A DNA stretch of 59,749 nucleotides from the UHGV virus genome UHGV-0185078, one strand, 5' to 3'. The position numbers and the translations under genes are program-made. Position 1 is the first letter of the stretch. Each line of letters begins with the position of its first letter. Shown piece after piece: positions 1-53,661 of the stretch. The notes under the pieces were generated by a model. That model worked only from the letters and a program-made list of their open reading frames with translations, was not told where the DNA came from and searched no databases. The DNA is from a virus.

Positions 1-71
1 GTATGGTTCGTATTAACGTAGCGAAGCTTCCAATGTTGATACGTCAAGCTATAGCAGAAGGAAAACTATAA
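1..71 (+). CDS. 3' end of neck/tail-completion protein (HK97 gp10-like) continuing from 59413 across the window junction
   Basis: If window ends are joined, the frame opened at 59413 continues ...SQQAPN|GMVRINVAKLPMLIRQAIAEGKL to TAA at 69-71, which overlaps ATG 71 (TAATG). Confidence 0.45.
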   Translation, partial: MVRINVAKLPMLIRQAIAEGKL

Positions 72-520
72 TGCTTGGATACGATTTCATTAATGATGCA
101 TTTAATAAGATGCTACGCGAAGCAGTTGGACCGGATATTGGTATAGCGTGGAAGAATAAGAAGTTTACACCTAAAGCCAACCAGATGTGGTTAAAGGCAA
201 TTAATGCTCCCGCTTCCACTTACGCAGCAACGCTAGGCGATAACGGTCTGAATGAAATTCCAGGCTTCTACCAAATCACAGTATATAGCCCTTTAAACAC
301 TGGAACGTCTAAGCAGAATCAAATCTTGGATTCTATTCGGAAAAAGTTTAAACTGGGCTTGCGTATCCCGTGCCCGGATGACCACACGTTACGGATTGTC
401 AGTTTAGACTTTTCGCAAGGTGGACAAACTTCGCTGAATGATTTTACCAAAGGCGGGGTTGAAGATAACTGGGACGTTAACTTTATCACAATCTATTGGT
501 CGGCTCGTGAGCCGAGGTAA
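71..520 (+). CDS. putative tail terminator / tail completion protein
   Basis: 149 aa ORF, start overlaps upstream stop; sits between neck genes and major tail protein gene. Confidence 0.45.
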   Translation: MLGYDFINDAFNKMLREAVGPDIGIAWKNKKFTPKANQMWLKAINAPASTYAATLGDNGLNEIPGFYQITVYSPLNTGTSKQNQILDSIRKKFKLGLRIPCPDDHTLRIVSLDFSQGGQTSLNDFTKGGVEDNWDVNFITIYWSAREPR

Positions 521-534
521 GAGAGGATCTAAAT

Positions 535-1458
535 ATGGCTACAGGTTCACGTTATTCGTGTTACTACGTCAAAGAAGATGTAAGCAACACTACGCCAGCG
601 AGCGCGAAGTTTACCCCGTTCCGTGTGACCAGTTCCGGTCTGGACATTAATATTGCAACGCTGGAATCTGAAGAACTGCGCGATGACGCTGAAACTGCGG
701 ACTTCCGCCTCGGCGCTCGCAGTGTTGAAGGTACAGTAACGGGCGAAATGTCCTTTGGCACCTTCGATGATCTTATTGCTGCTGCACTTCGTGGGGAGTG
801 GCAAGATAACGTCCTTAAAGGCGGTATCATCCGTCAGTCCTTCACTTTCGTAGACTATAACGCAGATCTACCTTCAGGTAAATATACAATTTATCGTGGT
901 TGCGAAGTTAATAGCATGACTTTCTCATTGTCTGCGGAAAACATGACCACAGTGGAATTCGGTATTGTTGGTCGCTCGATGGAGATTGCAGAATCTCTCC
1001 CATCTGGTGCAACTATCAAAGACCGTACAACTACTTCACCGATGGATGGTTTCTCCGGTCGCTTGCTGGAAAACGACGAAGAGATCAGCGTTATTACGGA
1101 AATCGGTCTTACCGTTGAAAACGATATTGCGCCGCGCTTTGTTGTTGGTTCTAAGTTCTCCATTGAACCGTCTGCTGGTCGTCGTGCTGTAACTGGTACA
1201 GCCAACGTGTACTTCCTGGACAACAAGCTTCGTACGAAGTATCTGGATGAAGTCGAAACGTCAATCAAGTTTGACCTGATCGACCCAAGCAATCCGGAAC
1301 AAAAATACACTGTGGAAATCCCTCGCGTGAAATTCACTGAAGCTCCGCGTCCTATTGACGGCGAAGGGGATATCATGCTTAATATGGGCTATCGCGGATT
1401 GCTGGACCCAACAACCGCAAGTTCCATCAAAATTACCCGCGTTCTAGCGGCAGCATAA
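535..1458 (+). CDS. major tail (tube) protein
   Basis: 307 aa; GAGAGGA RBS upstream of ATG; immediately precedes chaperone pair and tape measure gene, the canonical siphovirus order. Confidence 0.6.
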   Translation: MATGSRYSCYYVKEDVSNTTPASAKFTPFRVTSSGLDINIATLESEELRDDAETADFRLGARSVEGTVTGEMSFGTFDDLIAAALRGEWQDNVLKGGIIRQSFTFVDYNADLPSGKYTIYRGCEVNSMTFSLSAENMTTVEFGIVGRSMEIAESLPSGATIKDRTTTSPMDGFSGRLLENDEEISVITEIGLTVENDIAPRFVVGSKFSIEPSAGRRAVTGTANVYFLDNKLRTKYLDEVETSIKFDLIDPSNPEQKYTVEIPRVKFTEAPRPIDGEGDIMLNMGYRGLLDPTTASSIKITRVLAAA

Positions 1459-1467
1459 GGATAAGAA

Positions 1468-1875
1468 ATGACCGACACCAAAAAAGCCAAAGTTGCAGTA
1501 GCTAAAAGCTTTCGTGATTTTAAAACTGTGAGCCGGGCAAACGACCCGGCAAACACTAAGCCAATGAATGTGGTTATTCCTGGTGTAGGCGACACTGGCG
1601 AAAAACTCTACATTCGTAGCCGTTACTGCACAGAGTACCGTGATGCTGAACTGAAAGCACAGCGTCAACTGTTGGCGCTTATGCAGGGTAACGACGGTGA
1701 AGTAACGGATGCTATGAAGGAAGATATCCTTACCCGTTCACTGTGTAACCTTGTAGCAGGTTGGACTTTTGACGAGCCACCAACTGTTGACAACGTGTTT
1801 GAGTTCTTAACGGAGAACCCAACTGTTCGAGAAGATCTTAACGTATTTGCCGCCAAAGATAGTAATTTTTTCTAA
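1468..1875 (+). CDS. tail assembly chaperone (lambda G-like)
   Basis: 135 aa ORF between major tail and tape measure genes; ends ...AAT TTT TTC TAA with a T6C slippery run at 1866-1872. Confidence 0.55.
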   Translation: MTDTKKAKVAVAKSFRDFKTVSRANDPANTKPMNVVIPGVGDTGEKLYIRSRYCTEYRDAELKAQRQLLALMQGNDGEVTDAMKEDILTRSLCNLVAGWTFDEPPTVDNVFEFLTENPTVREDLNVFAAKDSNFF

Positions 1876-2273
1876 AAGCGCGCAGACAGTTAATTGATAA
1901 GAAGATCCTCCAATGGGAACTAAATAGCAAAGTCCCCGGCGGGGGATCTTCTTTATTATCGCAACTGCAAAAGGTTGAGGAACAGTCTGGTAAGACGCCA
2001 CCTAAGCTTAAAGAATATCGGGAAAAGGAAATACCGATTTGCTTTGAATACCTGTCTACTTTATTTGATGACATTTACACTGGAGGGGATTTTAGCTATA
2101 CAGAATTGCACAGCTATCAGGTAACAATGGGCTTACATCTTCAACCGTACGAATGCGAAATACTGCGACAGCTATGGCTTGAAAAGCGCGTGTCTGAAGC
2201 TGAACAAAATGCTAAACTCATGGAAAGTCAAATGCAAAATCAGAATAAAGGTAGAAGGAAAAGGAGAAGGTAA
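1866..2273 (+). CDS. -1 frameshift extension producing GT-like tail assembly chaperone fusion
   Basis: The -1 frame is open from the slippery T_TTT_TTC (1866-1872) to TAA 2271-2273 (about 134 codons, ...LWLEKRVSEAEQNAKLMESQMQNQNKGRRKRRR) with no in-frame ATG or RBS of its own until 2127; stop overlaps tape measure ATG. Confidence 0.45.
   Translation, partial: FFLKARRQLIDKKILQWELNSKVPGGGSSLLSQLQKVEEQSGKTPPKLKEYREKEIPICFEYLSTLFDDIYTGGDFSYTELHSYQVTMGLHLQPYECEILRQLWLEKRVSEAEQNAKLMESQMQNQNKGRRKRRR
1932..1957 (+). terminator. weak hairpin plus U-rich tract inside the GT extension
   Basis: tcccc-ggcg-gggga stem-loop followed by tcttctttatt; may attenuate transcription into the tape measure gene. 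Confidence 0.3.
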
Positions 2274-5200
2274 TGGCCGAAACTGCTTCGCTAGTAATCA
2301 GGGTTGACGCGAAAGGGATTAGCACAGCGGACTCCATGCTGCGTAACCTTGCGCGTACAGGTGACACAGCGGAGCGTTCCGCTCAACGTGTCACATCCAG
2401 CTATAAAACATTGTCTAACACATCTAACGAACTTGCAACTGTCACAAGTCGTTTAGATGCTGCAATTGTAGGAATGATCAGCGTTGACACCATTAACCGT
2501 GTTATTTCGCTATCGGACTCCTGGACTATCCTCACCAACAAACTTGAACTGGCTCGTACGGGTAATGAAACCGTTGCGGATGCACAGCAACGCGTGTTTG
2601 ATATTGCCCAGCGGTCACGTACAAGCTTGGAAGCAACTGCAACTCTATATTCCCGTCTCCAGCGTGCAATGAAGAATACTGGTATGACGGGTATGGAGCT
2701 TGGACGTATCACTGAAACAATCAACAAAGCGATGATTGTTTCCGGTGCAACATCACATGAAGCAAGCGCTGCCCTTATTCAGTTTTCGCAAGCAATGGCA
2801 TCCGGTGTTCTGCGAGGGGATGAATTCCGTTCTGTTGCAGAACAAGCCCCGCGCTTAACGCAAATTATGTCCGATGCGTTAGGTGTTACCATTGGACAAT
2901 TGCGTGAAATGGCCTACAGTGGCAAGTTAACCGCCGATGTGGTTATCAAATCGTTGTCTGGTGCTGCGGATACAATTGATAAAGAATTTAGCCGCACTAT
3001 GCCAACGTTCAACCAGCAATGGACGGTCGCAACAAATAACCTGACTAAGTTTATGGGCGAATCCCAAAAGACTCAGGGTGCGGTTGCTGCATTGGGACAG
3101 ACGTTTGTTGCATTATCCGGAAACTTAGGAACGGTTGTAACGGTTGGTTCAGCTTTAGCCACAGTAATTACCGCCCGTATCATCACCGCAATGCTTGCTA
3201 AGACTAAAGCGTCTATAGCTGCTGCAAAAGCATCTCAGATGGAAGCTGCACAGACTGCGGCAACTACTGCGGTAATGCAAAGCTCTATTGGCGTTACTGC
3301 ACAGAAAGCGGCTGCGGATCGTGCTGCTTCGCTTGCGGCGTTACAGGTTGCTCGCGGGTCATTAGCGGTTGCTAAAGGTACGGCAGCGGAAGCAGGTGCA
3401 CGTCTTGCGCTTATTAACGCTACTCGTGCGCATTCTGCGGCAATTATGGCGGACGTACAAGCGCGGCAAGCGCTCAATGCTGCTCTTAATGCAACTGTAC
3501 CAGCGGCAAGCCGAGCCGCTACAGCAATGAGCGTGCTGCGCGGTGCTATGGGGTTAATTGGCGGTCCTGTTGGTGTAGCAATGCTGGCAGCGGGTGCAAT
3601 TTACTCCTATAAAGCGTCGCTGGAAGCTGGTCGTGCGGAAAACAATCAGTTTGCGGATAGTGTTGATACTGTACGCGATAAACTGATGCAGATGACAGAA
3701 GCTCAGTTAGCTGCTAACGCAGTTAAAGCTCGCGCAATTCTCCCCGAACTTGAAGAGCAAATGAAGCGGGAGCAAACTGCTCTTAAATCTGCAACGGAAA
3801 CGCAGAAGTTCTATGAAGCGCAATTAAAACGTCGTGCTGCGTCCGGTCGTGATACAGCCAGTGCTGAAAAGAATTTACAAATTGCAACGGATAACGTCAA
3901 GCTTGCTGCTGAACGTGCTGAAGAAGCTCAACGTCGTTACAACAATGTCTTAGAAATGACAAGCCCTGCTATCGAGAAGATAATCCCGTTAGCTCGTCAG
4001 CTTGCAGCGGATATGAAAGCAGTGCTTAATATCAAATCCGGTCCGCTTATTGACGAGAAAGTGCTTGATCGTTTTAAAGGTCAGTTAGGTGACGTTAACC
4101 GTGAGATTGACGTCAACACGGTTAAAGGTGCTGGTAACGCTCGCCAGGCTGCAATCCTTAGTGGGCTGTATCAAACTCTGGGCAAAGATGCAGACACCTA
4201 CGGAAGTCTTATTCGCAAAGTAGCTATGGGTCAGGACGTTAGCTCAGAGGCAACAAGCGAATCTGCTAAAGAGCTTGTTAAATATGCTCAAGATTTAGCC
4301 CAAGCTCTTGGCAAAAACTACGATCTTGAAGAAGCAGAGAGAAACCGGACTAAAGCTACAAAAGACGCTATTAAGGCGCATCAACAAAACGCTAAGGTTA
4401 TTGACGATTTACGAAACAAGCTTAACGAAGTAACCACAGGGGTTAAGGAAAACGCCAAAGCGAAAGCGCAAGCGGTGGCACTTAATAAGCTCAATGCGTC
4501 TGCAACGGCTGCGGAAAAAGAGGAAGTTGTTAGACTTGCTGCTGCAATCTACGATGCAGAAGAAGCTCAAAAGAAACTGGACGAGCGTAAGAAGAACCGT
4601 AAGTTTGCTCAGGGTCTGTTAGATGAAGGTATGACAGACTATGAAAAAATCGCGTACGAGCAAAATACAAAGATTGCAGAGCTTAATGCAAAACAGCGAG
4701 CTGATGATTTAGCTTACTATCAGCTTTACGAAGATGCTAAAACCCAAGTCCTGAAGAAAGCAAGCATGGAAAGGGAAAATCTGGATAAAGTTCTTATGAA
4801 CCGAATGATATCCTTTTCTCAGGAATCCTTAGGCATTATAATGGATGGACTGTCACAGGCTGTAAGCCAGCAGAACTTCTTTTATAAAGCTATGTTTGCA
4901 GCACAGAAAGCAATGCAAATCCCGTCAATCCTTGCTAACACGGAAACGGCAGCATCCGCGGCGCTTGCATGGGGTACACAGCAAGGCGGTGCTACAATGG
5001 GCGCAACAATGGCAGCTATAGTGAAAACTATGGGCTATGCGTCAGCAGCTACTGTGGGTGGCTTAGCAATTGCTGGTATGGCTCACGACGGTATTGATAA
5101 CGTTCCGCGTGAAGGTACATGGTTGCTGGATAAGGGCGAACGTGTACTTAATGCTCCGTCTAATGACAAGTTAAATCGCTTCCTGGATAGCCAAGCTTCA

Positions 5201-27783: not shown

Positions 27784-29763
27784 TTAGAACGGAACGTAAT
27801 CCGGATCATCTACTTGCACAGGATTAACCACATTGTTCACCGTTATGCCTTGCGTATTCTGTGAAACAATATCATCCCAGCTCACATCATCATTGTTATA
27901 GCTCGGACCTTCTGTTGTTCCATCCTGCCCGTATACTTTAACCTGAATAGCTTCGTCGTCCTGTGGTGCTTCAAACTTACCGAAACACGTACCATCATAA
28001 TCATAGTTCAATATCTCAGGCCATTTCTTATTGGTATGAACTTTGATGTATTTCGGTGTTTTAAGCATTGCAGCAACATCAAGGGCTTCTTCAATAGTTT
28101 GTGGTAAAGGAAGATGCGTCCTTTTCTTCCACCATGCAACCGCTTTACGACCTGCCCAGTCACCATGAAGCAGAGCTACCCATTCGCTGAATATTTTACT
28201 ACCGCAATAATAAGTCACCTTCATTGTTGGAGGTTTGGAGCTGTCATTGCGTTTAGTGTGCTTCGCATAAGTGACATGCGTAACTTTAAAGTCTTCAACT
28301 ACCGGAATGTCTTGCTTGATTAAAGCTTCGGTACTTGCTGCCTTTTTAAGTTTTGTCTGGAACTTAAACTCATGACCGCAAAATCCTTCTTTAACATAAT
28401 CCGTTCCACGTAGTCTGAATCCCTTCAAATACAATTGTTGAACTTGTTCCTGTGTAACGCTGTCCATAGGAATTGGTGCAAAGCCACCGCAATAGCGAGC
28501 AGATGCATGATTATACGACCCGCACACATCGCATTCTTTAACCGGAGCAGTACCAGCACCTTTTTCGCCCGGGCGCTTGGGTTTAACAGGGTCGTTAATA
28601 GGGCCCAAACGACGCGTATTACCGCTGAAATCCAGTACAAGGCAGTTCTGCTTAGGGCTTGCTGCAATAGCTTGCAAGCGACCTTCCTGCGTGGAAAGAT
28701 CAAAGCCCTCCGCATATACCGGACGCGTACCGCGACCCAACATCTGAACCCATAGCACTGCCGAGGCAGTGGGGCGAAGCATAATAATTAGATCAAGCAT
28801 CGGATGGTCGAACCCTGTGGTTAAGACGTTGTTGTTCGTCAGCGCTCGAAACTCTCCACGCTTGAATTTTTCAATAATTTCATCACGCTCTTTTGCATCA
28901 AGCTTTGAGTGAATACATCCGCAACTAATACCCATATCGTTCAGCATATCACACGCATCTTTAGCGTGTTCAATACCAGAACAAAATATAAGCCAGCTTT
29001 GACGGTCTTCACCACATTCAATGGCTTCCTCAAGTGCGCGGAGTGTTGCGTCGTCGCGGTTCACTGCACTTTGCAGCTCACTCTGAATAAACTCACCGCC
29101 GCGTTTACCTACCCCGTTGAGGTCCAGTTCCATCTTTGTACGCTTTGGCACAACCGGAAGCAAATAACCTTGCTCCAGGAACCAGTTAAAGGCTTCAGGA
29201 GTAGTCGCATCAAACGTTACTTTATCAAATAAAGCATCATCGTCTTCGTTTTCCTTAACAATTGAGCCGTAACCCAGTCGATAAGGTGTAGCGGTAAGAC
29301 CGATAATTTTTAAATACGGGTTAACTTCACGCAATGCTGCAAAGAACTTCTTATACATTGTTGCATCACGCGGACTAATAAGGTGCGCTTCATCCACAAA
29401 GATTAGATCAACCTTGCCGAACTTTTTAGGATGCTTAGCAACGGATGCAATCCCCGCAAATGTGATAAGATTATAAACTTCTTTACGCTTCAAACCTGCA
29501 CTGTAAATACCTGCTGGCGCTTCAGGCCAGACTTTCATTAATTTATCATAGTTTTGCGCGATCAACTCTTTGACGTGAGTTAACATCATTACGCGCTGGT
29601 TTGGATACCATTTATAAAGCAGATCGAGGAACCCCGCGATAACGAGCGATTTTCCTGTCCCTGTTGGTAACAGGATCAAAGGGTTCCCCGCGTTACCCTT
29701 TTCAGCATCAAAATAGCGGAATACGCTATAAACTGCTTCCTGTTGATAATCGCGGAGCTGCAT
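27784..29763 (-). CDS. SF2 DEAD/DEAH-box DNA helicase
   Basis: Motif I LLPTGTGKS, motif II FVDEAH, motif III LTATP, motif VI QMLGRGTR; start taken at ATG 29763 (track start is TTG). Confidence 0.85.
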   Translation of the reverse strand: MQLRDYQQEAVYSVFRYFDAEKGNAGNPLILLPTGTGKSLVIAGFLDLLYKWYPNQRVMMLTHVKELIAQNYDKLMKVWPEAPAGIYSAGLKRKEVYNLITFAGIASVAKHPKKFGKVDLIFVDEAHLISPRDATMYKKFFAALREVNPYLKIIGLTATPYRLGYGSIVKENEDDDALFDKVTFDATTPEAFNWFLEQGYLLPVVPKRTKMELDLNGVGKRGGEFIQSELQSAVNRDDATLRALEEAIECGEDRQSWLIFCSGIEHAKDACDMLNDMGISCGCIHSKLDAKERDEIIEKFKRGEFRALTNNNVLTTGFDHPMLDLIIMLRPTASAVLWVQMLGRGTRPVYAEGFDLSTQEGRLQAIAASPKQNCLVLDFSGNTRRLGPINDPVKPKRPGEKGAGTAPVKECDVCGSYNHASARYCGGFAPIPMDSVTQEQVQQLYLKGFRLRGTDYVKEGFCGHEFKFQTKLKKAASTEALIKQDIPVVEDFKVTHVTYAKHTKRNDSSKPPTMKVTYYCGSKIFSEWVALLHGDWAGRKAVAWWKKRTHLPLPQTIEEALDVAAMLKTPKYIKVHTNKKWPEILNYDYDGTCFGKFEAPQDDEAIQVKVYGQDGTTEGPSYNNDDVSWDDIVSQNTQGITVNNVVNPVQVDDPDYVPF

Positions 29764-42442: not shown

Positions 42443-42463
42443 AAATCCTCCTAGTGAACTGGT

Positions 42464-42740
42464 AATGCCACTATAAAACAGCTATTAGCTATTTGCAAGA
42501 ATTGTTTTAATATAGTGCTTAGTGGCGTACATAGTGGGCAAAACGTGTATAGTACGTCGTTACTGGCTTTGTAAAAGTTTGCCACTATAAACCACTATCC
42601 CACTATCCACTAATTTTTTATTTTTACACAGAGCAAAGTTTATAAGTTTACGGTTTCCCCCTTATTACCCCGTTTTCAAACAAAGAATTAGTAGTAGTAG
42701 TGAAAACGTGTAAATGCCACTATCACTACTATACTATTAA
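42464..42740. repeat. iteron cluster, repeated (G)CCACTAT motif in both orientations
   Basis: gccactataaa (42467), inverted atagtgc/tagtggc/atagtggg (42512-42538), tandem gccactataaa-ccactatcc-cactatcc-actaa (42581-42613), gccactatcactactatactatt (42716-42738). Confidence 0.55.
42470..42498 (-). promoter_or_regulatory. candidate sigma70-like promoter for gene 41714-42442, overlapping an iteron
   Basis: Minus strand TTGCAA-17-TATAGT, then AGGAGG RBS and ATG; the -10 is the reverse complement of the CCACTAT iteron. Confidence 0.45.
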
Positions 42741-42769
42741 TTATCTGAAAAAAGTTGGGAGTATACCCC

Positions 42770-42935
42770 TATAAACTTATAAACTTTCAGTCAACTAACT
42801 AAAATAAACCAAATTAAACTAATATTAATAATAACTATAAATATATATAAAATAAGGATTTATTATTATTGTATATAGTACCTATTGGTATTATGTGATG
42901 AGTTTATAGTCACTAAATAAACTCTATAAATTTTA
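42770..42935. other. strongly AT-rich tract with ATAAAC repeats (candidate DNA unwinding element)
   Basis: About 165 bp of mostly A/T with repeated ataaac/ataaat motifs immediately beside the iteron cluster. Confidence 0.5.
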
Positions 42936-43110
42936 ATAAACCTGAACGGATGCAGATCAAAAACGAGAAGTCAAGTGCTTTTGAGGGAAATTTATTGAAC
43001 TATTGTGATCGAAAGGTATATCAAGCTATAATGCGCTTAATCGCGGAGTATTGGAGGAGGACTTTATTGCGCGGTTAACCGGACCAGTTGGAGGGCTGAC
43101 CCGGTTGGAG

Positions 43111-43440
43111 TTAAAGTTCGGTGATTTGGTAAAGGCTAATAGTGTCGTTGGACATTACGCCGGACAGGATGCCGTTCGTCCAGTTTATGCAGTAAGGCGA
43201 ATGTAACGTGTTATGCATGAAGTAAAGGTCGTTATTGATAATGCTTCGCATCGGCTGTACTGCAATAAGGTTGTCTTCTAAAACGTGCTTTACATAGTCG
43301 TCATTAGGAATAGTAAAGCTGTCTTTAAACTTGCCGAACATTGGCGTTAATTTTACAAGGCGACCTTTTTGTTCAACCTTGTATACGTTCTTGCGGAAGA
43401 ACTGACCGTGTTCAATATAGCTGCGTACGAAACTAGTCAT
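43111..43440 (-). CDS. hypothetical protein
   Basis: 109 aa ORF. Confidence 0.4.
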   Translation of the reverse strand: MTSFVRSYIEHGQFFRKNVYKVEQKGRLVKLTPMFGKFKDSFTIPNDDYVKHVLEDNLIAVQPMRSIINNDLYFMHNTLHSPYCINWTNGILSGVMSNDTISLYQITEL

Positions 43441-43551
43441 TTATTCGTCCTCCATCAAAGCGCGTTTCATGTCACCGTTGCATACAACGGCAATTCCCAT
43501 TTCATAAAGTGCTTCAAGTTGCTCGATAGTAATTGTTTCATAGTAAGACAT
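43441..43551 (-). CDS. small hypothetical protein
   Basis: 36 aa from ATG 43551 (GAGGA RBS); longer track ORF starts at a non-ATG codon and overlaps the upstream gene. Confidence 0.3.
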   Translation of the reverse strand: MSYYETITIEQLEALYEMGIAVVCNGDMKRALMEDE

Positions 43552-43604
43552 GTTTGTATCCTCAGGTTGTTGAGGGCTCCCGCAGAAGCCGATGTGGTTA
43601 TCGA

Positions 43605-44219
43605 TTAAGCGTCCAGGCCGTTGTACTTGCGCCATGCGTAGAACTGGATTGCTACTGTTGTGCCGTTGTAAGAAGGCATTGCAGCTTTCATTTCTTTCAG
43701 CTCAGGTGTACGTCCCAGCTCAGCGAGCAGCTTGTCACCCATTGCCCAAACTTCAGCAGTTTTACCTTTCAGCGGCTTGCGAGCGCCATTTTTAAAATCA
43801 CAGCGAGCAGCTTTTGCATCTTGTTTTGGCGCGGCAGCTTTTGGCTCTTCAATTTTGATTTCAGAAACCTGCGTGGCAGCTTTTGCGTGTTTCATATCTT
43901 TCTCTTCCTCCTGCTCCAGAGCTTCGAGGCAGCTTTTGACGATTTCCGGATTTACCATCGGGCGCAGTACCGAGACGCTAGCAGCAGGCGCGGCGGTCGG
44001 TGCCGGGACTTTCTGCCCCGGCTGTTGCGCTTTTTTATGGTCGCGCAGTACCTGAAGCACTTCCTTCTCGACGATATAAAAACCGATTTCGTCCTGATGG
44101 ATAAGCTGTTCGTGTGCATCGCGTGCAACCTGGCCCCAGCGGGTCTTAAGGGCACGGCGTGCATTCGTTTTCATGGTGTAACGCATTTTGTCCTGTTCGC
44201 GGTGAGTTACTTTAGACAT
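43605..44219 (-). CDS. Lys/Ala/Glu-rich protein with conserved C-terminal domain (paralog of 26299-27102)
   Basis: 204 aa; C-terminal VWAMGDKLLAELGRTPELKEMKAAM...FYAWRKYNG aligns with the C-terminus of ORF 26299-27102. Confidence 0.45.
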   Translation of the reverse strand: MSKVTHREQDKMRYTMKTNARRALKTRWGQVARDAHEQLIHQDEIGFYIVEKEVLQVLRDHKKAQQPGQKVPAPTAAPAASVSVLRPMVNPEIVKSCLEALEQEEEKDMKHAKAATQVSEIKIEEPKAAAPKQDAKAARCDFKNGARKPLKGKTAEVWAMGDKLLAELGRTPELKEMKAAMPSYNGTTVAIQFYAWRKYNGLDA

Positions 44220-44308
44220 GGTATGTTCCTTCTGTTAGATTGTTTAGTTGTCTTGCTAAGTTGACTTATTATTGCCCACCGTGTTGAAATGGGCAAGATA
44301 TAAATCAC

Positions 44309-44458
44309 TTAATTTGTAATTTTATCTACACAGTAGTCAGCATCAAATTCCGCCGGGCTAATACCCAATTGGGCAATTGCAGCCGCTTCAGCTTCAACGA
44401 AATTGTTGGCTTCAATGAACGCGACGATAACACCGTATTTATTAATGACTTCGTACAT
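44309..44458 (-). CDS. small hypothetical protein (first leftward gene)
   Basis: 49 aa ORF MYEVINKYGVIVAFIEANNFVEAEAAAIAQLGISPAEFDADYCVDKITN, translated by hand; below the track size cutoff. Confidence 0.3.
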   Translation of the reverse strand: MYEVINKYGVIVAFIEANNFVEAEAAAIAQLGISPAEFDADYCVDKITN

Positions 44459-44795
44459 GGTCTAACCCTTAATGTGGTTAAGCAGTATTGCTTTGTTGAA
44501 GTAATAATAGCCTTGCATCGTGATATTGAATAGGCCAAAAGTGCTATTTTAGATCACTATTACATCTACAGCTTTGCAGTAACGCTACGCTAAAAATGCA
44601 AAGTTTTACGTTTGCTAAACATGTAGATTTTGTGCTCATCCCTCTTAGTACGTATAACGTCTATTATGTTAAATAGCTAAGTTATTGATTTATGGTAAAT
44701 CTTGTATCAATTTGGACGTTATAGGCGTCTAACGTATTGATTTATAAGGGTGTAAAATTTTGCTGTTTGTAGCGCATAAAAAGGAACAAACCGGG

Positions 44796-44824
44796 ATGTC
44801 ATAAAATGACATGTGTTTTGTCAT
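44796..44824. promoter_or_regulatory. operator-like overlapping inverted repeats in the divergent control region
   Basis: atgtcat-aaa-atgacat perfect palindrome overlapping atgaca-N7-tgtcat; three TGTCAT-type half sites just upstream of the putative rightward promoter. Confidence 0.4.
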
Positions 44825-44844
44825 TATAAATGCCACGTTTGGCC

Positions 44845-44873
44845 TAGACATAGATCAAGTCATGGCGTACTAT
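44845..44873 (+). promoter_or_regulatory. candidate rightward early promoter
   Basis: TAGACA-17-TACTAT about 45 nt upstream of the first rightward ORF and its GGAGG RBS. Confidence 0.35.
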
Positions 44874-44916
44874 ATAGTCAAAGGAAAGATAAAGCCGAAA
44901 GGCGGAGGAAAATAAA

Positions 44917-45066
44917 ATGAGAAAGTTTAAAGTCATGTACTACGGTAACTACATTGGAGACGTTAAAGCTCCGAATCGTGCAGATGCAGAAGGTTTCGTT
45001 CGCGCAGAGATGCAGATTGGAATCGCCGATTTTGCAGCCATTATCGAACTGGTAGAGGTATTTTAA
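44917..45066 (+). CDS. small hypothetical early protein
   Basis: 49 aa ORF, GGAGG RBS 9 nt upstream of ATG, directly downstream of the putative rightward promoter; hand-translated. Confidence 0.4.
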   Translation: MRKFKVMYYGNYIGDVKAPNRADAEGFVRAEMQIGIADFAAIIELVEVF

Positions 45067-45067
45067 T

Positions 45068-45208
45068 ATGTCACGCAAATACACGCTTACACGCGCACAG
45101 CACGCGTTATTAATTGCAGCAATGCACGCAGAATATGCAGTTCATGGCTGGCATAGTGCCATGATGCGCGGTAAAAGCATATATGCGGACATGCGCTCGC
45201 AAGGATAA
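45068..45208 (+). CDS. small hypothetical early protein
   Basis: 46 aa ORF starting 1 nt after the previous stop; hand-translated. Confidence 0.3.
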   Translation: MSRKYTLTRAQHALLIAAMHAEYAVHGWHSAMMRGKSIYADMRSQG

Positions 45209-45244
45209 CGCACACAGCGCCACGCTAGCGAGCTAATGTACATA

Positions 45245-45264
45245 GGTAATGGTAATGCATTACC
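45245..45264. repeat. ggtaat direct repeat followed by 14-bp perfect palindrome ggtaatgcattacc
   Basis: Read directly from the sequence in the 45209-45774 non-coding region. Confidence 0.5.
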
Positions 45265-45475
45265 AACACACAACGAGCGCGCTGTACCCCACAAAGCGGC
45301 GCTAATTTCAATACTCACAGGCTGTACGTTAACGCGTACGGCCTGCTCTTCTATATGCACGCCATGTATATAGCCAGCTCACGATGCACATCAATATAAT
45401 TACGAATGAAATGGATTCGTTTTGGAAGAATAACGATTCTTACCGTCGCAGACCGGTCCGATGAGCCAACTCATA

Positions 45476-45600
45476 GACCCCACCTAGGATCATCAGGGTA
45501 CTAATAATCACCCAAGGGCGCCTTATCCATCCTGATAGTAAGTGCTTGTCTAAATCTCACCCATCACATAGCCTATCCACCTACATCCATGACCCCACCT
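45476..45600. repeat. direct repeats gaccccacct (45476-45485 and 45591-45600) with tatccac-like motifs between
   Basis: Two 10-bp identical copies 115 bp apart; intervening ccatcc / ctatccacc motifs. Confidence 0.45.
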
Positions 45601-45774
45601 ACCTTCTTTTTGAATATATTGCGCTCATCCTTTCTAAATATATGGATTTTGGTAGTAAATTCTAAGTCGTCAACGTATAATTCGTCTTGTAGCTGCTCCA
45701 TAGCTACCATCTTTAAGCGGATGCAACCAATTTCTATCAATTCACACCTGTTTTTAGAGCATCAAGGAGGTATT

Positions 45775-46026
45775 ATGTGCGACTCCAGTGCAAGCGCTAC
45801 ACCCAGCACCTCCAGCAATGTGGTTACAGAGGTAAATGCAATGCGATTAGGTCCATATCGCGGCTATTATGGTCGTGCTGCATGGAATGACGCTACTCAA
45901 CGTTTTGAAGGCTGGATTATCTGCCCGGAACGTGTTAAATTTCACTCCGTAAAAGAGAAAAATATCGTTCTTAATTTTCAAAAATGTGTCACTAAATATG
46001 TAGAGGAGCAAGAAGAATGCGTGTAG
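45775..46026 (+). CDS. hypothetical protein
   Basis: 83 aa from ATG 45775 with AGGAGG RBS. Confidence 0.45.
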   Translation: MCDSSASATPSTSSNVVTEVNAMRLGPYRGYYGRAAWNDATQRFEGWIICPERVKFHSVKEKNIVLNFQKCVTKYVEEQEECV

Positions 46027-46307
46027 AAGAGATTGTTGAAGGTAAAGAGTATCGTTTACTGACCGATATTGGCGGTGTTGGGTATACTCCGGATGGTGCA
46101 GCTTGTTTTAACGTCCTTCCGCAAGCTGCTATCGTGACAGTTAACAAGGTTGTTACAGATTTATACAGCGTTCATGACGGCAACTGGCCACATGCAGTTA
46201 TTGTCACCTTCGGTAAAGATGGGTATGTGGATCTTGACGGTGAAGATGACACTTACGAAGTTGCTTATACAGGTCTTGTAAGCCCCAATTTCCTGGAAGA
46301 AGTATAA
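46017..46307 (+). CDS. hypothetical protein
   Basis: 96 aa, GAGGAG RBS, start overlaps upstream stop. Confidence 0.45.
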   Translation: MRVEEIVEGKEYRLLTDIGGVGYTPDGAACFNVLPQAAIVTVNKVVTDLYSVHDGNWPHAVIVTFGKDGYVDLDGEDDTYEVAYTGLVSPNFLEEV

Positions 46308-46358
46308 TTATCATTCTATAATGGGCTCTACGGAGCCCTTAATTATCTGGAGGTTGTT

Positions 46359-46661
46359 ATGCTGTATTTAGGAATGGACGAAACTGGACACGCAATTCCT
46401 TCTGTCAACAAGAAGACGCAAGTATTTACAGACTATTACGGGTCTGCTATCCCTGTAGAGGCTTGGGCTAACTTTATCGCTGTAGATGCAGACGGTAAAG
46501 TTCATTGTTATGACGCCAAACCTTCTTGCTATGAATCTGGTAAGCAATGGATGCTTGGCGTATACGGTTTGCATGTTCGCTACTGCGGCGAAGTTGACAT
46601 TGAAGGTGTGGACTGGCGCGATACGCTAATGGAAATTAAAGAATATAGGCTTAACCAATGA
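46359..46661 (+). CDS. hypothetical protein
   Basis: 100 aa, GGAGG RBS. Confidence 0.45.
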   Translation: MLYLGMDETGHAIPSVNKKTQVFTDYYGSAIPVEAWANFIAVDADGKVHCYDAKPSCYESGKQWMLGVYGLHVRYCGEVDIEGVDWRDTLMEIKEYRLNQ

Positions 46662-47757: not shown

Positions 47758-48150
47758 ATGCTATTAGTCGTCACCGGAGGTCGAGATTTTAAGCATGTGG
47801 AGTATATTTACGCTCAATTGGATAAGCTGCATATGCAAAGAAGGATAACCACACTTCGCCACGGTGACGCTGACGGTGTTGACCGGATTTGCGCACATTG
47901 GTCAGAGCGCAACGGTATTAAGACAGAAGCGTTCCCTGCCCCGTGGGACAATCTTTCGCTTCCAAATACTAAGATACGGTATAACGCCAGAGGTGCTTAT
48001 AATGCCCAAGCGGGCGCTTACCGTAATCAATTAATGCTGGATACTGATCCTAAACCAGATCACGCTATTGTGTTTCCGGGCGGAGCTGGTACTATGGACA
48101 TGTACAGACGGATTAAAGCATCCGGTATTCCTTACACATTAGCGGAGTAA
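47758..48150 (+). CDS. SLOG/DUF2493-like Rossmann-fold protein
   Basis: LLVVTGGRDF...RHGDADGVDRICAHW...FPAPWD...GAYRNQLML...AIVFPGGAGTMDMY pattern typical of the SMF/DprA-LOG superfamily. Confidence 0.4.
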   Translation: MLLVVTGGRDFKHVEYIYAQLDKLHMQRRITTLRHGDADGVDRICAHWSERNGIKTEAFPAPWDNLSLPNTKIRYNARGAYNAQAGAYRNQLMLDTDPKPDHAIVFPGGAGTMDMYRRIKASGIPYTLAE

Positions 48151-51566: not shown

Positions 51567-52124
51567 ATGAACGGGGCAAGTCAAGAGCAATATGATCGTG
51601 ACTGGACGAATTACATCCAGTATGCAAATAGCTTGTCCGCTGAAGAGATGGCAATACGTGACAAAGTTGTTGCTGAGTACATGTTCGACTACAATTGGAC
51701 TAACGCTTGCATGAGATGCGGGTTCAATGCTATGTTTGCACAGGAGCTTGGCCAACGCTTTGCCACGGACTGTTATGTTCGATGGAAGCTCAAGGAGATT
51801 GAAAGATCCCGTGTTCAACGTACTTCTGAGCAAGCTAACATTGAAGCAGACCTTGAGCGTCAGCATATCATTGAAGCATTAAAACGTGAAGCTCATTATA
51901 CAGGACCGGGGTCTTCTCAAGCTGCTAGAGTCGCTGCATTGGGCAAGCTTGCACAAATTTATGATTTGGATGCTCCCAAGAAGGCTAAGATTGATGTTAC
52001 TAACAGAGGCGGCGTAATGATAGTCCCTGCTGTAGCAAATATTGACGAATGGGAAAAAACTGCATCCGAGTCTCAACAACGACTAGTTAAAGAGACTGAA
52101 GATGGAGCTAAACCGACAACCTGA
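51567..52124 (+). CDS. terminase small subunit
   Basis: 185 aa ORF directly upstream of, and overlapping, the large terminase gene. Confidence 0.55.
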   Translation: MNGASQEQYDRDWTNYIQYANSLSAEEMAIRDKVVAEYMFDYNWTNACMRCGFNAMFAQELGQRFATDCYVRWKLKEIERSRVQRTSEQANIEADLERQHIIEALKREAHYTGPGSSQAARVAALGKLAQIYDLDAPKKAKIDVTNRGGVMIVPAVANIDEWEKTASESQQRLVKETEDGAKPTT

Positions 52125-53661
52125 TAACATGCCGCGAGTAGTCTGGAAGCCACATCCAGGTTCACAGACGCTCGCTTTATCCTGTCCTGCTGATATCATT
52201 TTATACCACGGTACTCGCGGTCCTGGAAAGACGGACTGTCAGCTTATGCGTTTCCGTAAGAATGTTGGCGTAGGGTACGGTAAATTCTGGAAGGGTATTA
52301 TATTCGACCGTGAATATAAAAACCTTGATGACCTTGTAACTAAGTCACAGCGTTGGTTTCCTGAATTTAAAGACGGTGCTAAATTCCTTAGTTCCAAGTC
52401 TGATTATAAATGGGTTTGGCCTACTGGGGAAGAATTGCTGTTCCGTGTTGCTTGCAAAGAAAAGGATTATTGGTCTTATCATGGTCACGAATACCCGTTT
52501 ATCGGATGGAACGAATTAACAAAGTATCCGGACGGGCGTTTGTTTGAAGCAATGATGTCCTGTAACCGTTCATCATTCCTACCCGAAGATAATCCAATCA
52601 TCAATCCGGACGGTACTGTCACATATTTACCAGACATTCCTCTGGAAGTGTTTGCCACCAGTAACCCGTTTGGCGCGGGGCATAACTGGGTTAAGAAACG
52701 CTTCATTGACGCTGCACCGATGGGTAAAATACTCAGGAAAACTACGCGAGTGTTTAACCCGCGGACGCAGAAAGAGGAAGATGTGGTTACGACGCAATGC
52801 CATATCTTCGGATCTTACCGTGAGAACAAAAACCTGAGCCCGAAATATATTGCAGAGCTTATGTCCATCACAGACCCGAACAAACGAGCTGCATGGTTAG
52901 GCGGTAGCTGGGATATCACCTCCGGCGGTATGTTCGATGATCTGTGGCGTAGCACTGTTCATAAAATACGCCCATTCCCAATCCCATCAAGCTGGAAGAT
53001 TACACGTTCTTTCGACTGGGGTTCTTCAAAACCATTCTCCGTTGGCTGGTGGGCTATTAGTGACGGTTCGGATGTTATACGTGAAGATGGTACTACATTC
53101 TCTACTGTTCGCGGTGACTTATTCCGTATTAACGAGTGGTACGGCACTAATGGTAAAACAAACGAAGGTCTACATTTGCTGGACTCAGAGATTGCAAGCG
53201 GTATACTGGAGCGGGAATTGGCCTGGGGTATACACGACCGTGTAGTTCCCGGACCTGCGGATAACTCTATTTGGGATCTGGAGAACAATAACTCTACCGC
53301 CGCAACAATGGCGAAGAAAATCCGTCTTAACGGCAAGCTGTATAACGGTATTCATTGGAAGAGAAGTGATAAATCTGCTGGGTCGCGTAAACGCGGATGG
53401 CAGAAAATGCGTGAGTTTCTTAAAGCTGCATTGCGGGAAGATGCAAACGGTAAACCTTTGCCGGGACCACGTGAAAATCCAGCAATGTATGTTTTTGATA
53501 ACTGCAATTATTTCTTTGAACTTGTTCCAAGTCTTCCGCGCGATGAAGTAGATCAGGACGACGTTGATACGGAATGTGAAGACCATATGGGCGATGAAGT
53601 ACGTTATATGGTTCTGGATCAAGCTGTTTATACAGGTGTCGGTAAAACTATCGGTATTTAA
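52102..53661 (+). CDS. terminase large subunit
   Basis: 519 aa; P-loop YHGTRGPGKTD; acidic nuclease-domain motifs in C-terminal half; followed by portal gene. Confidence 0.85.
   Translation: MELNRQPDNMPRVVWKPHPGSQTLALSCPADIILYHGTRGPGKTDCQLMRFRKNVGVGYGKFWKGIIFDREYKNLDDLVTKSQRWFPEFKDGAKFLSSKSDYKWVWPTGEELLFRVACKEKDYWSYHGHEYPFIGWNELTKYPDGRLFEAMMSCNRSSFLPEDNPIINPDGTVTYLPDIPLEVFATSNPFGAGHNWVKKRFIDAAPMGKILRKTTRVFNPRTQKEEDVVTTQCHIFGSYRENKNLSPKYIAELMSITDPNKRAAWLGGSWDITSGGMFDDLWRSTVHKIRPFPIPSSWKITRSFDWGSSKPFSVGWWAISDGSDVIREDGTTFSTVRGDLFRINEWYGTNGKTNEGLHLLDSEIASGILERELAWGIHDRVVPGPADNSIWDLENNNSTAATMAKKIRLNGKLYNGIHWKRSDKSAGSRKRGWQKMREFLKAALREDANGKPLPGPRENPAMYVFDNCNYFFELVPSLPRDEVDQDDVDTECEDHMGDEVRYMVLDQAVYTGVGKTIGI

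Follow-up and report, generated by a model that had tools for sequence, protein, structure and literature searches.

The stretch of DNA considered here, hereafter the window, comprises 59,749 bp (UHGV virus genome UHGV-0185078) and is the complete genome of a member of the genus Seuratvirus, subfamily Queuovirinae. Seuratvirus phages are siphoviruses of E. coli whose DNA is modified with 7-deazaguanine. Between a 46-aa open reading frame (ORF) that ends at position 45208 and an 83-aa ORF whose start codon, at 45775, is preceded by a GGAGG ribosome-binding site (RBS) lies a region, positions 45209-45774, that had been described in a first-pass annotation as free of ORFs and as a candidate pac/cos site, second origin or early regulatory RNA. 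The absence of genes was borne out: no conserved ORF is present, and the mechanical ORFs of 30-72 aa fail comparison with relatives. In this report, we describe the composition of the region and the reasons for which we consider it likely to hold the right (inner) edge of a long direct terminal repeat (DTR), that is, an exact-end terminus and not a cos or headful pac site. Rightward genes extend from ~44.9 kb through the end of the window to ~16 kb, with small genes preceding those for the terminase and structural proteins, and leftward genes extend from ~44.6 kb down to ~16 kb, with small genes preceding those for replication and modification. The assembly looks circular, and the start point of the window is therefore meaningless; over the 260-nt core that was compared, the window is identical to metagenome contig NODE_71 of ENA ERZ1034925 (59,804 bp, corresponding to 59,749 bp plus a 55-nt assembly overlap). 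Positions 44500-46500 share 90-96% identity with SHIN8, SLUR76, Seurat, CAjan and ~30 other phages by BLAST, and across the proposed end-forming locus the window is 92-96% identical to Seuratvirus genomes.

The terminal repeat itself is present in the record of one relative. ECP2304 (OR880647.1), a Seuratvirus of 63,590 bp that is 93% identical across the region, matched the query twice, and its positions 1-3695 equal positions 59896-63590 with 0 mismatches, constituting a perfect DTR of 3,695 bp. The ECP2304 repeat ends in CACCCGAGGGCCCTT (over a longer stretch, GGTACTAATAATCACCCGAGGGCCCTT), and this end aligns to the junction between 45524 and 45525 of the window, with GGGCGCCTT immediately to its left and ATCCATCCTGATAGTA to its right. 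The junction falls between the two copies of the direct repeat GACCCCACCTA, at the point where universally conserved sequence begins. Because BLAST similarity between the window and five independent CAjan-type genomes starts at 45515-45526, a mosaic or recombination junction also coincides with the repeat boundary. The opposite, left boundary of the repeat is predicted at ~42726; similarity to slur01 and SLUR76 begins at 42749. This predicted boundary falls within positions 42443-42950, which are likewise AT-rich and devoid of ORFs and in which CCACTAT(C/A) is repeated six or seven times.

Ends of this kind have been mapped in the sister genus Nonagvirus. For phage 9g, 91 read starts, all in one orientation, were reported at nt 28,243, with other reads crossing the site, and the authors interpreted this nucleotide as a physical end of DNA that bears a terminal repeat (Kulikov et al. 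2014, PMC4276943). Position 28,243 lies within a 603-bp noncoding gap before the first rightward gene of 9g. The read-start mapping that the first-pass annotation had proposed as a check was, for a relative, already published and lands at the equivalent place. HdSG1 (MK373795) and HdK1 (MK373794) carry perfect DTRs of 3,363 and 3,367 bp, respectively, whose right ends, terminating in GGGCGGCTC, fall at the same nucleotide as the 9g pile-up. Another member of the subfamily, Pseudomonas phage iggy, has a 1,091-bp DTR as determined from nanopore reads (PMC10484667). DTR ends are of a previously known kind (9g, HdSG1, HdK1); for Seuratvirus, we found no earlier description, as literature searches located neither a publication on terminal repeats in the genus nor any statement on its termini in the BASEL, Olsen, Sazinas, Korf and Kot papers.

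The Seuratvirus and Nonagvirus ends also resemble one another in geometry, as determined with a repeat finder and independently of alignment. In the window, the two copies of GACCCCACCTA are spaced 115 bp apart, and the ECP2304-derived cut lies 38 nt after copy 1 and 67 nt before copy 2; in 9g, two copies of TCACCTCACC are spaced 111 bp apart, and the mapped end lies 40 nt after copy 1 and 62 nt before copy 2. The cut is preceded by GGGCG plus 4 nt in each of the two genera for which ends have been mapped, which places the boundary at a fixed conserved sequence and at a similar distance from an exact repeat pair. Providencia phage PSTCR7, whose end is not mapped, likewise has two copies of a word, CACCCCACTA, with a spacing of 111 bp, and its 645-bp ORF-free gap, which is syntenic with the region, displays GGGCGTTAC at the predicted place of the cut. 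The TerL and TerS subunits encoded by the window are 67% and 46% identical, respectively, to those of 9g, so that the terminase is an orthologue of one from phages in which DTR ends have been demonstrated; these subunits (51567-53661) are the enzymes expected to make the cut. A PDB search with TerL returned no sequence relative. Tentatively, Queuovirinae and their neighbours (Seuratvirus, Nonagvirus and Craquatrovirus) might be viewed as sharing a modular end site in which a 10-11-nt C/A-rich word recurs 111-115 bp apart, the cut falls 38-40 nt after copy 1 and directly after GGGCG-N4, and the word co-varies with the fast-evolving TerS (46% identity between genera) while the geometry is held constant; we regard this generalization as possible rather than probable.

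In the syntenic ORF-free gaps of related genera, periodic repeat arrays precede the cut, whether predicted or mapped, on its left side (L031 1229-1873 in PSTCR7, L032 1237-1882 in the Providencia phage PSTCR4, and L037 3451-3524 in 9g). The PSTCR7 array consists of four copies of a 25-nt unit beginning with TGTAACAATAACA, one every 30-31 bp, following a strong terminator and a TTGACT/TATAAT promoter, and that of 9g consists of three copies of the 21-nt GTGCCGGAAATACCAGGTAAC, one every 26-27 bp. CAjan carries an array of CGCACAGCG x4. Since the window has no array of the CAjan, 9g or PSTCR7 type, such arrays are evidently not essential for end formation.

A number of observations weigh against placing a DTR end at this locus. 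The window is a metagenome contig whose own ends were not observed, and only one Seuratvirus record, ECP2304, carries the DTR, as an unannotated duplication; a literature search found no paper on ECP2304 or on how its ends were determined. The left boundary is poorly conserved with respect to ECP2304 and only roughly placed, and no sequence motif is common to the left and right boundaries. The left flanking repeat copy is imperfect in CAjan-type genomes, where it reads GACCCGACCCA. With regard to the sister genera, a Seuratvirus core profile gave no significant nhmmer match in Nonagvirus or Craquatrovirus DNA, so that the cross-genus link is architectural and not one of alignable homology, and a MAFFT alignment that puts the cuts no more than 2 columns apart carries little weight, as the input segments had been pre-centred on the cuts. 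That the phage represented by the window has ends of the ECP2304 type is something we infer. Two further searches covered other assemblies. Contigs encoding the downstream gene were inspected for ends that might mark the boundary, and all long ones are arbitrary permutations, as would be expected if the repeat assembles into a cycle. An IMG/VR scan with a 16-nt core pattern yielded 18 loci, only three of which were true relatives, all of them close, and thus contributed no divergence. In the course of the nhmmer searches, Pantoea phage Vid5 was seen to carry an 18/20 match (L033 1964-1983, reading CGACCCCACCCACCTTCTTA) to GACCCCACCTACCTTCTT of the window (GACCCCACCYACCTTCTT); the match is not significant (E=3.3), yet it is situated in the right neighbourhood, ~1 kb upstream of the gene that, in Vid5, is homologous to the 83-aa one.

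Ten relatives were aligned, and the comparison was widened to 26 distinct Seuratvirus sequences; on this basis, the region reads as a composite of a 54-bp palindrome block, a swappable cassette, a cut-site core and, for the first gene outside the repeat, a putative promoter with its leader (Table 1). The 54-bp block is 92-98% conserved in all E. coli Seuratvirus relatives, irrespective of the upstream gene or the cassette that follows, and in place of the palindrome, CAjan-type genomes have within it an inverted repeat with a 10-bp stem, CGAGCTAATG...CATTAGCTCG; possibly, it is a protein-binding site or a hairpin. The cassette, 45263 to ~45519, is common to only six other genomes (SLUR25, SHIN8, GottfriedDienst, ECP2304, SA126VB and Skure), and most relatives, of the CAjan type, have ~118 bp of GC-rich CGCACAGCG repeats in its place. 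Within the cassette are the terminator-like hairpin, which is confined to genomes with the window-type cassette, the sigma-70 promoter-like site, and, at the 5' end of the predicted transcript, two short hairpins (45402-45444, -10.2 kcal/mol). From 45520 rightward, conservation is 94-98% in all relatives. Even STP-SP5 and yong3, with a neighbouring protein of only 72-76% identity, show no change in the islands GGTACT, TCCATCCTGATAGTA, AAATCTCAC and ACCCCACCTACC, the diverged Seuratvirus member SD04 likewise retains the core islands unchanged, and the islands around the cut are invariant across all 26 sequences. The block that follows the core is noncoding, as judged by indels in T-runs among relatives, and its promoter is putative, having been read from sequence. 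In SD04, two inserted ORFs part this block from the cut-site core and the block remains with the downstream gene; an HNH endonuclease gene takes the place of the block in Skure, WildeMaa and SA80RD.

Table 1. Coordinates of features at and around the predicted right end of the terminal repeat
Feature	Position	Strand	Description
Conserved 54-bp block, inside the predicted terminal repeat	45209-45262		GGTAAT-GGTAAT and palindrome TGGTAATGCATTACCA (45250-45265)
Terminator-like hairpin	45318-45345	+	12-bp stem, 4-nt loop, -20.6 kcal/mol, then CTCTTCTATA (poor U-tract); from consensus scan
Sigma-70 promoter-like site TAGCCA-N18-TATAAT	45371-45400	+	10/12 consensus positions
Left copy of direct repeat GACCCCACCTA	45476-45486		Ends 38 nt before predicted cut
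Predicted terminase cut / right DTR boundary	45515-45534		GGGCGCCTT then ATCCATCC; cut between 45524 and 45525, ~+/-5
Conserved core, outside the predicted repeat	45525-45605		ATCCATCCTGATAGTA...AAATCTCAC...ACCCCACCTACC; includes right copy of GACCCCACCTA (45591-45601)
Putative promoter and leader, first gene outside the predicted repeat	45606-45774	+	-10 TATAAT 45676-45681 after conserved AAATTCTGAGTCGTCA; RBS GGAGG 45766-45770; ATG 45775
Predicted left DTR boundary	42700-42750 (~42726)		ECP2304 position 1 aligns weakly; poorly resolved
Terminase small subunit	51567-52124	+	Weak Pfam Terminase_2 match; phage 9g TerS relative
Terminase large subunit	52102-53661	+	Pfam Terminase_6N match; phage 9g TerL relative

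An insertion hot spot was noted directly after ACCCCACCTACC (right of 45605), ~80 nt outside the predicted repeat boundary. Skure, WildeMaa and SA80RD have HNH homing endonuclease genes there, Nonagvirus HdK1 has such a gene at the corresponding position, and SD04 has two small ORFs (insertion coordinates L007 1264-1737, L034 2008-2481, L044 1226-1708, L042 3536-4015 and L012 1357-1450); every insertion is accompanied by a TGnTAAAAT promoter-like sequence.

The palindrome, repeats, hairpins and motifs on which the first-pass annotation drew are all found in the region, yet they differ in how far they depart from chance. The palindrome described as 14 bp long (GGTAATGCATTACC, 45251-45264) is present and extends in fact to a perfect 16 bp, and the extra copy of GGTAAT that precedes it lies at 45245-45250. 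Genome-wide, 16-bp palindromes number 2 against 0.9 expected and 14-bp palindromes 3 against 3.65 expected; the palindrome alone is therefore unremarkable, and it is located 260 bp from the predicted cut. The repeats noted as GACCCCACCT are an exact 11-mer pair with the spacing given above, a configuration that arose in 81 of 2000 shuffles of the region (~0.04) and is thus mildly unusual; among the features listed previously, this pair is the one that matters. The short inverted repeats likewise exist (AGAAT-AACG-ATTCT at ~45428-45441 and ATGAG-CCAA-CTCAT at ~45462-45475). Three features had been passed over, namely, the 12-bp-stem hairpin, the sigma-70-like site and the perfect TATAAT of the leader.

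It might be argued that the region serves transcription only, with a terminator behind the first two small rightward genes, then a new promoter and the long leader of the next operon, in which the C-rich, G-poor stretch on the + strand could act as a Rho-loading site, and that it has no role at a genome end. The energy of the hairpin (-20.6 kcal/mol), the 10/12 promoter-like site, both hexamers of which are kept in the seven cassette-bearing genomes, the base composition of the core (C=23, G=2 in 45550-45599) and the perfect TATAAT at 45676-45681 are all in keeping with such a view, and the submitters of SA126VB annotated an equivalent rho-independent terminator as well as the promoter, both computationally. 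However, the U-tract of the hairpin is poor, and promoter-like matches in the wider area number 12, compared with 11.9 expected from shuffles. The cassette that supplies the terminator and promoter is absent from most relatives, of the CAjan type, which retain the core. Transcription alone would also leave unexplained why the ECP2304 repeat ends exactly here, why the geometry of the repeat pair is common to the mapped Nonagvirus ends, and why mosaic breakpoints occur at the same spot. A purely transcriptional role is thus unlikely in our estimation; the transcriptional elements are compatible with a DTR end and form part of that reading. Lambda-like nut/boxA elements, an HK022-type put RNA and Rho utilisation were likewise considered, as readings of the bare sequence.

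The remaining explanations fare considerably less well. A replication origin at the start of the rightward unit, with TATCCA(C) motifs as DnaA boxes, direct repeats as iterons, and inverted repeats together marking the initiation site, can be reconciled with two TTATCCACA-like motifs (45523 and 45573), the exact 11-mer repeat, a minimum of cumulative GC skew near 43 kb, and the arrays in the syntenic gap of related genera (3 x 21-nt in 9g, 4 x 25-nt in PSTCR7). Yet the TATCCAC-like motifs, while present, each carry 2 mismatches, and in a search that allowed up to 2 mismatches such matches occur about once per 230 bp both genome-wide and in the region, without local enrichment. Moreover, the window has only two repeat copies and no arrays of the sort found in the other genomes, the turn in GC skew tracks the switch in gene orientation and is located 2 kb away, and there is no adjacent initiator gene, the neighbours being without assignable function in PHROGs and Pfam. 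The proposal of a second origin accordingly gains nothing from these motifs, and we deem an origin here very improbable. No better placed is a regulatory RNA, whether as a structured leader or as an antisense RNA from the minus-strand site TTGACG-N16-CAAAAT (45673 to 45646). That site matches 9/12 consensus positions, its -35 region lies within a conserved island, and high conservation without coding capacity would suit an RNA; conversely, the conservation consists of short islands between variable spacers, a pattern of protein-DNA sites. The Rfam search suggested in the first-pass annotation gave no match for the whole window at the gathering threshold or for 44600-46100 at E<=1, and a tRNA/tmRNA scan was also without a match. 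Folding z-scores for 45401-45790 were -0.31 on the + strand and +0.55 on the - strand, and RNAalifold, applied to seven Seuratvirus sequences over 224 columns, returned -8 and -12 kcal/mol with a positive (penalising) covariation term on both strands. With z-scores near 0 and no covariation on either strand, a structured RNA was dropped, and the early regulatory RNA once proposed for this site appears highly doubtful.

Least credible of all, in our judgment, are unannotated small protein genes, exemplified by a minus-strand 43-aa ORF (ATG 45702) that is annotated in SHIN8 and ECP2304. This ORF is intact and near-identical in most close relatives and is called by some pipelines; against it, the ORF is frameshifted in CAjan, truncated or replaced in SD04, and interrupted by three stops in STP-SP5, with the nucleotides still conserved, the few differences that separate close relatives are nonsynonymous (L/S, E/G twice, G/C), and no convincing RBS precedes it. 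On the plus strand, relatives lack the ATG at 45236 and have frameshifts in the 45406 ORF, and they do not maintain the reading frame of an upstream extension of the 45775 gene. Several GenBank records list hypothetical proteins across the region and the predicted boundary (L003 2445-2825, Seurat gp70; L008 828-1106, CAjan; L001 2237-2709, SHIN8); such annotations lack conservation among relatives and are probably spurious.

If, as we favour, the region forms the right end of a DTR, the following course of events can be envisaged. Virion DNA would be linear, with a segment of ~2.8 kb (~42726-45524) at both ends, which assembly of the window as a circle would have collapsed to one copy. Within the repeated segment would lie the divergent early promoters, together with a few very small genes. 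Once the DNA has entered the cell, its ends would recombine or be replicated into concatemers, which would account for the closure of assemblies into a circle. The terminase would then cut the concatemer at fixed sites, with a cut at ~45524/45525, directly after GGGCG plus 4 nt, generating the right end. The GACCCCACCTA copies and the invariant islands GGTACT and TCCATCCTGATAGTA are candidate recognition elements that may position the terminase or an accessory protein, and the repeat word would be predicted to co-vary with the diverged small terminase subunit. Rightward transcription would have to cross the edge from the repeat into unique DNA, which would explain the presence of putative terminator- and promoter-like elements inside the repeat and of a conserved leader outside it.

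The neighbourhood pointed to no candidate binding protein. Ten neighbouring small proteins matched, in PHROGs and Pfam, solely families without known function, except for one with a YAcAr/SLOG domain. This 130-aa protein (47758-48150), encoded 2 kb downstream, belongs to the YAcAr / YspA-related SLOG family (Pfam PF10686, E=5.6e-17); it is labelled by pipelines as a GTP-binding domain and is the sole neighbour with a family assignment.

A separate observation emerged from the DnaA-box search, namely, that words of the TGTGGTYAA type are over-represented in the genome. The 9-mer TTAACCACA occurs in 25 copies in the whole window, compared with ~0.5 expected, and the 8-mer TAACCACA, with 45 copies, is the most over-represented word of the genome. 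Sites of TTAACCACA on the + strand include 6587, 18056, 19573, 22619, 27824, 32905, 40849, 42405 and 55020, and those on the - strand include 194, 5667, 8006, 14426, 17281, 18980, 20473, 24497, 25616, 28824, 35087, 39519, 44481, 48434, 54895 and 58140. Copies of both words are found on both strands, mainly within genes, in any frame, and without extended flank conservation. Because the top words in 50 kb of phage 9g are one-base variants, TTGACCACA (19 copies) and TGACCACA (30 copies), TGTGGTYAA looks like a DNA-level signal common to the subfamily.

Several consequences would follow from a DTR end at this locus. Most Seuratvirus and Nonagvirus genomes in the databases (~57-61 kb) are arbitrary circular permutations without a terminal repeat. 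Should the ends lie at ~42.7 and 45.5 kb, the true chromosome would be ~3 kb longer, with the small genes of the repeat in two copies, and genes could be ordered unambiguously from left to right, a point of relevance to DNA entry and early gene expression. Any engineering of these phages, or use of them for packaging, would have to leave the site undisturbed. The GGGCG-N4 cut with its flanking repeat pair also constitutes a concrete, testable model of terminase recognition for a family of which, to our knowledge, there has been no biochemical study so far. If the modular end site were indeed shared among the three genera, the physical ends of dozens of circularly permuted GenBank genomes would be predictable from sequence alone.

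Among well-characterized systems, T7-like phages have exact, sequence-defined ends with identical termini, short repeats that flank the repeat boundary, and promoters near the junction, and in each of these established respects the end predicted here would be similar. Unlike the ~160-bp noncoding repeat of T7, the repeat here would span ~2.8-3.7 kb and carry genes; a phage RNA polymerase is lacking, and the sequences show no resemblance. Lambda cos and the pac sites of P22 and SPP1 are likewise terminase sites that create the ends of virion DNA. Cos cleavage leaves short single-stranded overhangs and no duplication, headful packaging from pac yields permuted, imprecise ends, and both kinds of site are usually at or in the small terminase gene; in contrast, the ends considered here would be exact, with a kilobase-range duplication, and the site is 6 kb upstream of terS. 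A cos site was rejected in view of the 3.4-3.7 kb duplications in relatives, the distance from terS, and the 9g reads that cross the end, and a headful pac site was rejected in view of the 9g pile-up at a single nucleotide (PMC4276943) and of independent records that end at the identical base. The earlier suggestion of a pac/cos site was thus right in spirit, insofar as ECP2304 and the sister-genus phages place a genome end here, and wrong as to the type of end.

A second point of comparison is T5, another siphovirus, in which a long DTR carries small, very early genes (Davison 2020, bioRxiv 10.1101/866236). The T5 repeat is ~10 kb, and its injection stop signal (iss), a large untranslated region with eight ordered DnaA boxes (bioRxiv 10.1101/866236), resembles the present region: both lack ORFs, abound in repeats, inverted repeats and palindromes, and are situated where the repeat has its inner end. 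Unlike those of the T5 iss, the DnaA-like motifs here are at background density, and there is no sequence similarity; an injection stop signal of the T5 type was rejected since the location is analogous but DnaA boxes are not enriched. We know of no two-step injection in the Queuovirinae. By analogy with the T5 iss, repeat-rich noncoding DNA at the inner repeat edge might nonetheless control DNA entry or early transcription.

The closest counterparts are the ends of 9g, HdSG1 and HdK1. The DNA of Nonagvirus is not alignably homologous by nhmmer, its repeat word is TCACCTCACC as opposed to GACCCCACCTA here, the Seuratvirus repeat additionally includes small rightward genes, two to four in number, an unrelated gene comes first beyond the boundary, and the three 21-nt iteron-like repeats in the 9g gap have no equivalent in the window. 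These phages nevertheless belong to the same subfamily and possess an orthologous terminase, their repeat of ~3.4 kb spans the divergent early promoter region and has its right end in the noncoding gap before the rightward genes, and their DNA, like that of ECP2304, ends after GGGCG plus 4 nt, 38-40 nt after copy 1 of a 10-11-nt C/A-rich pair spaced 111-115 bp apart.

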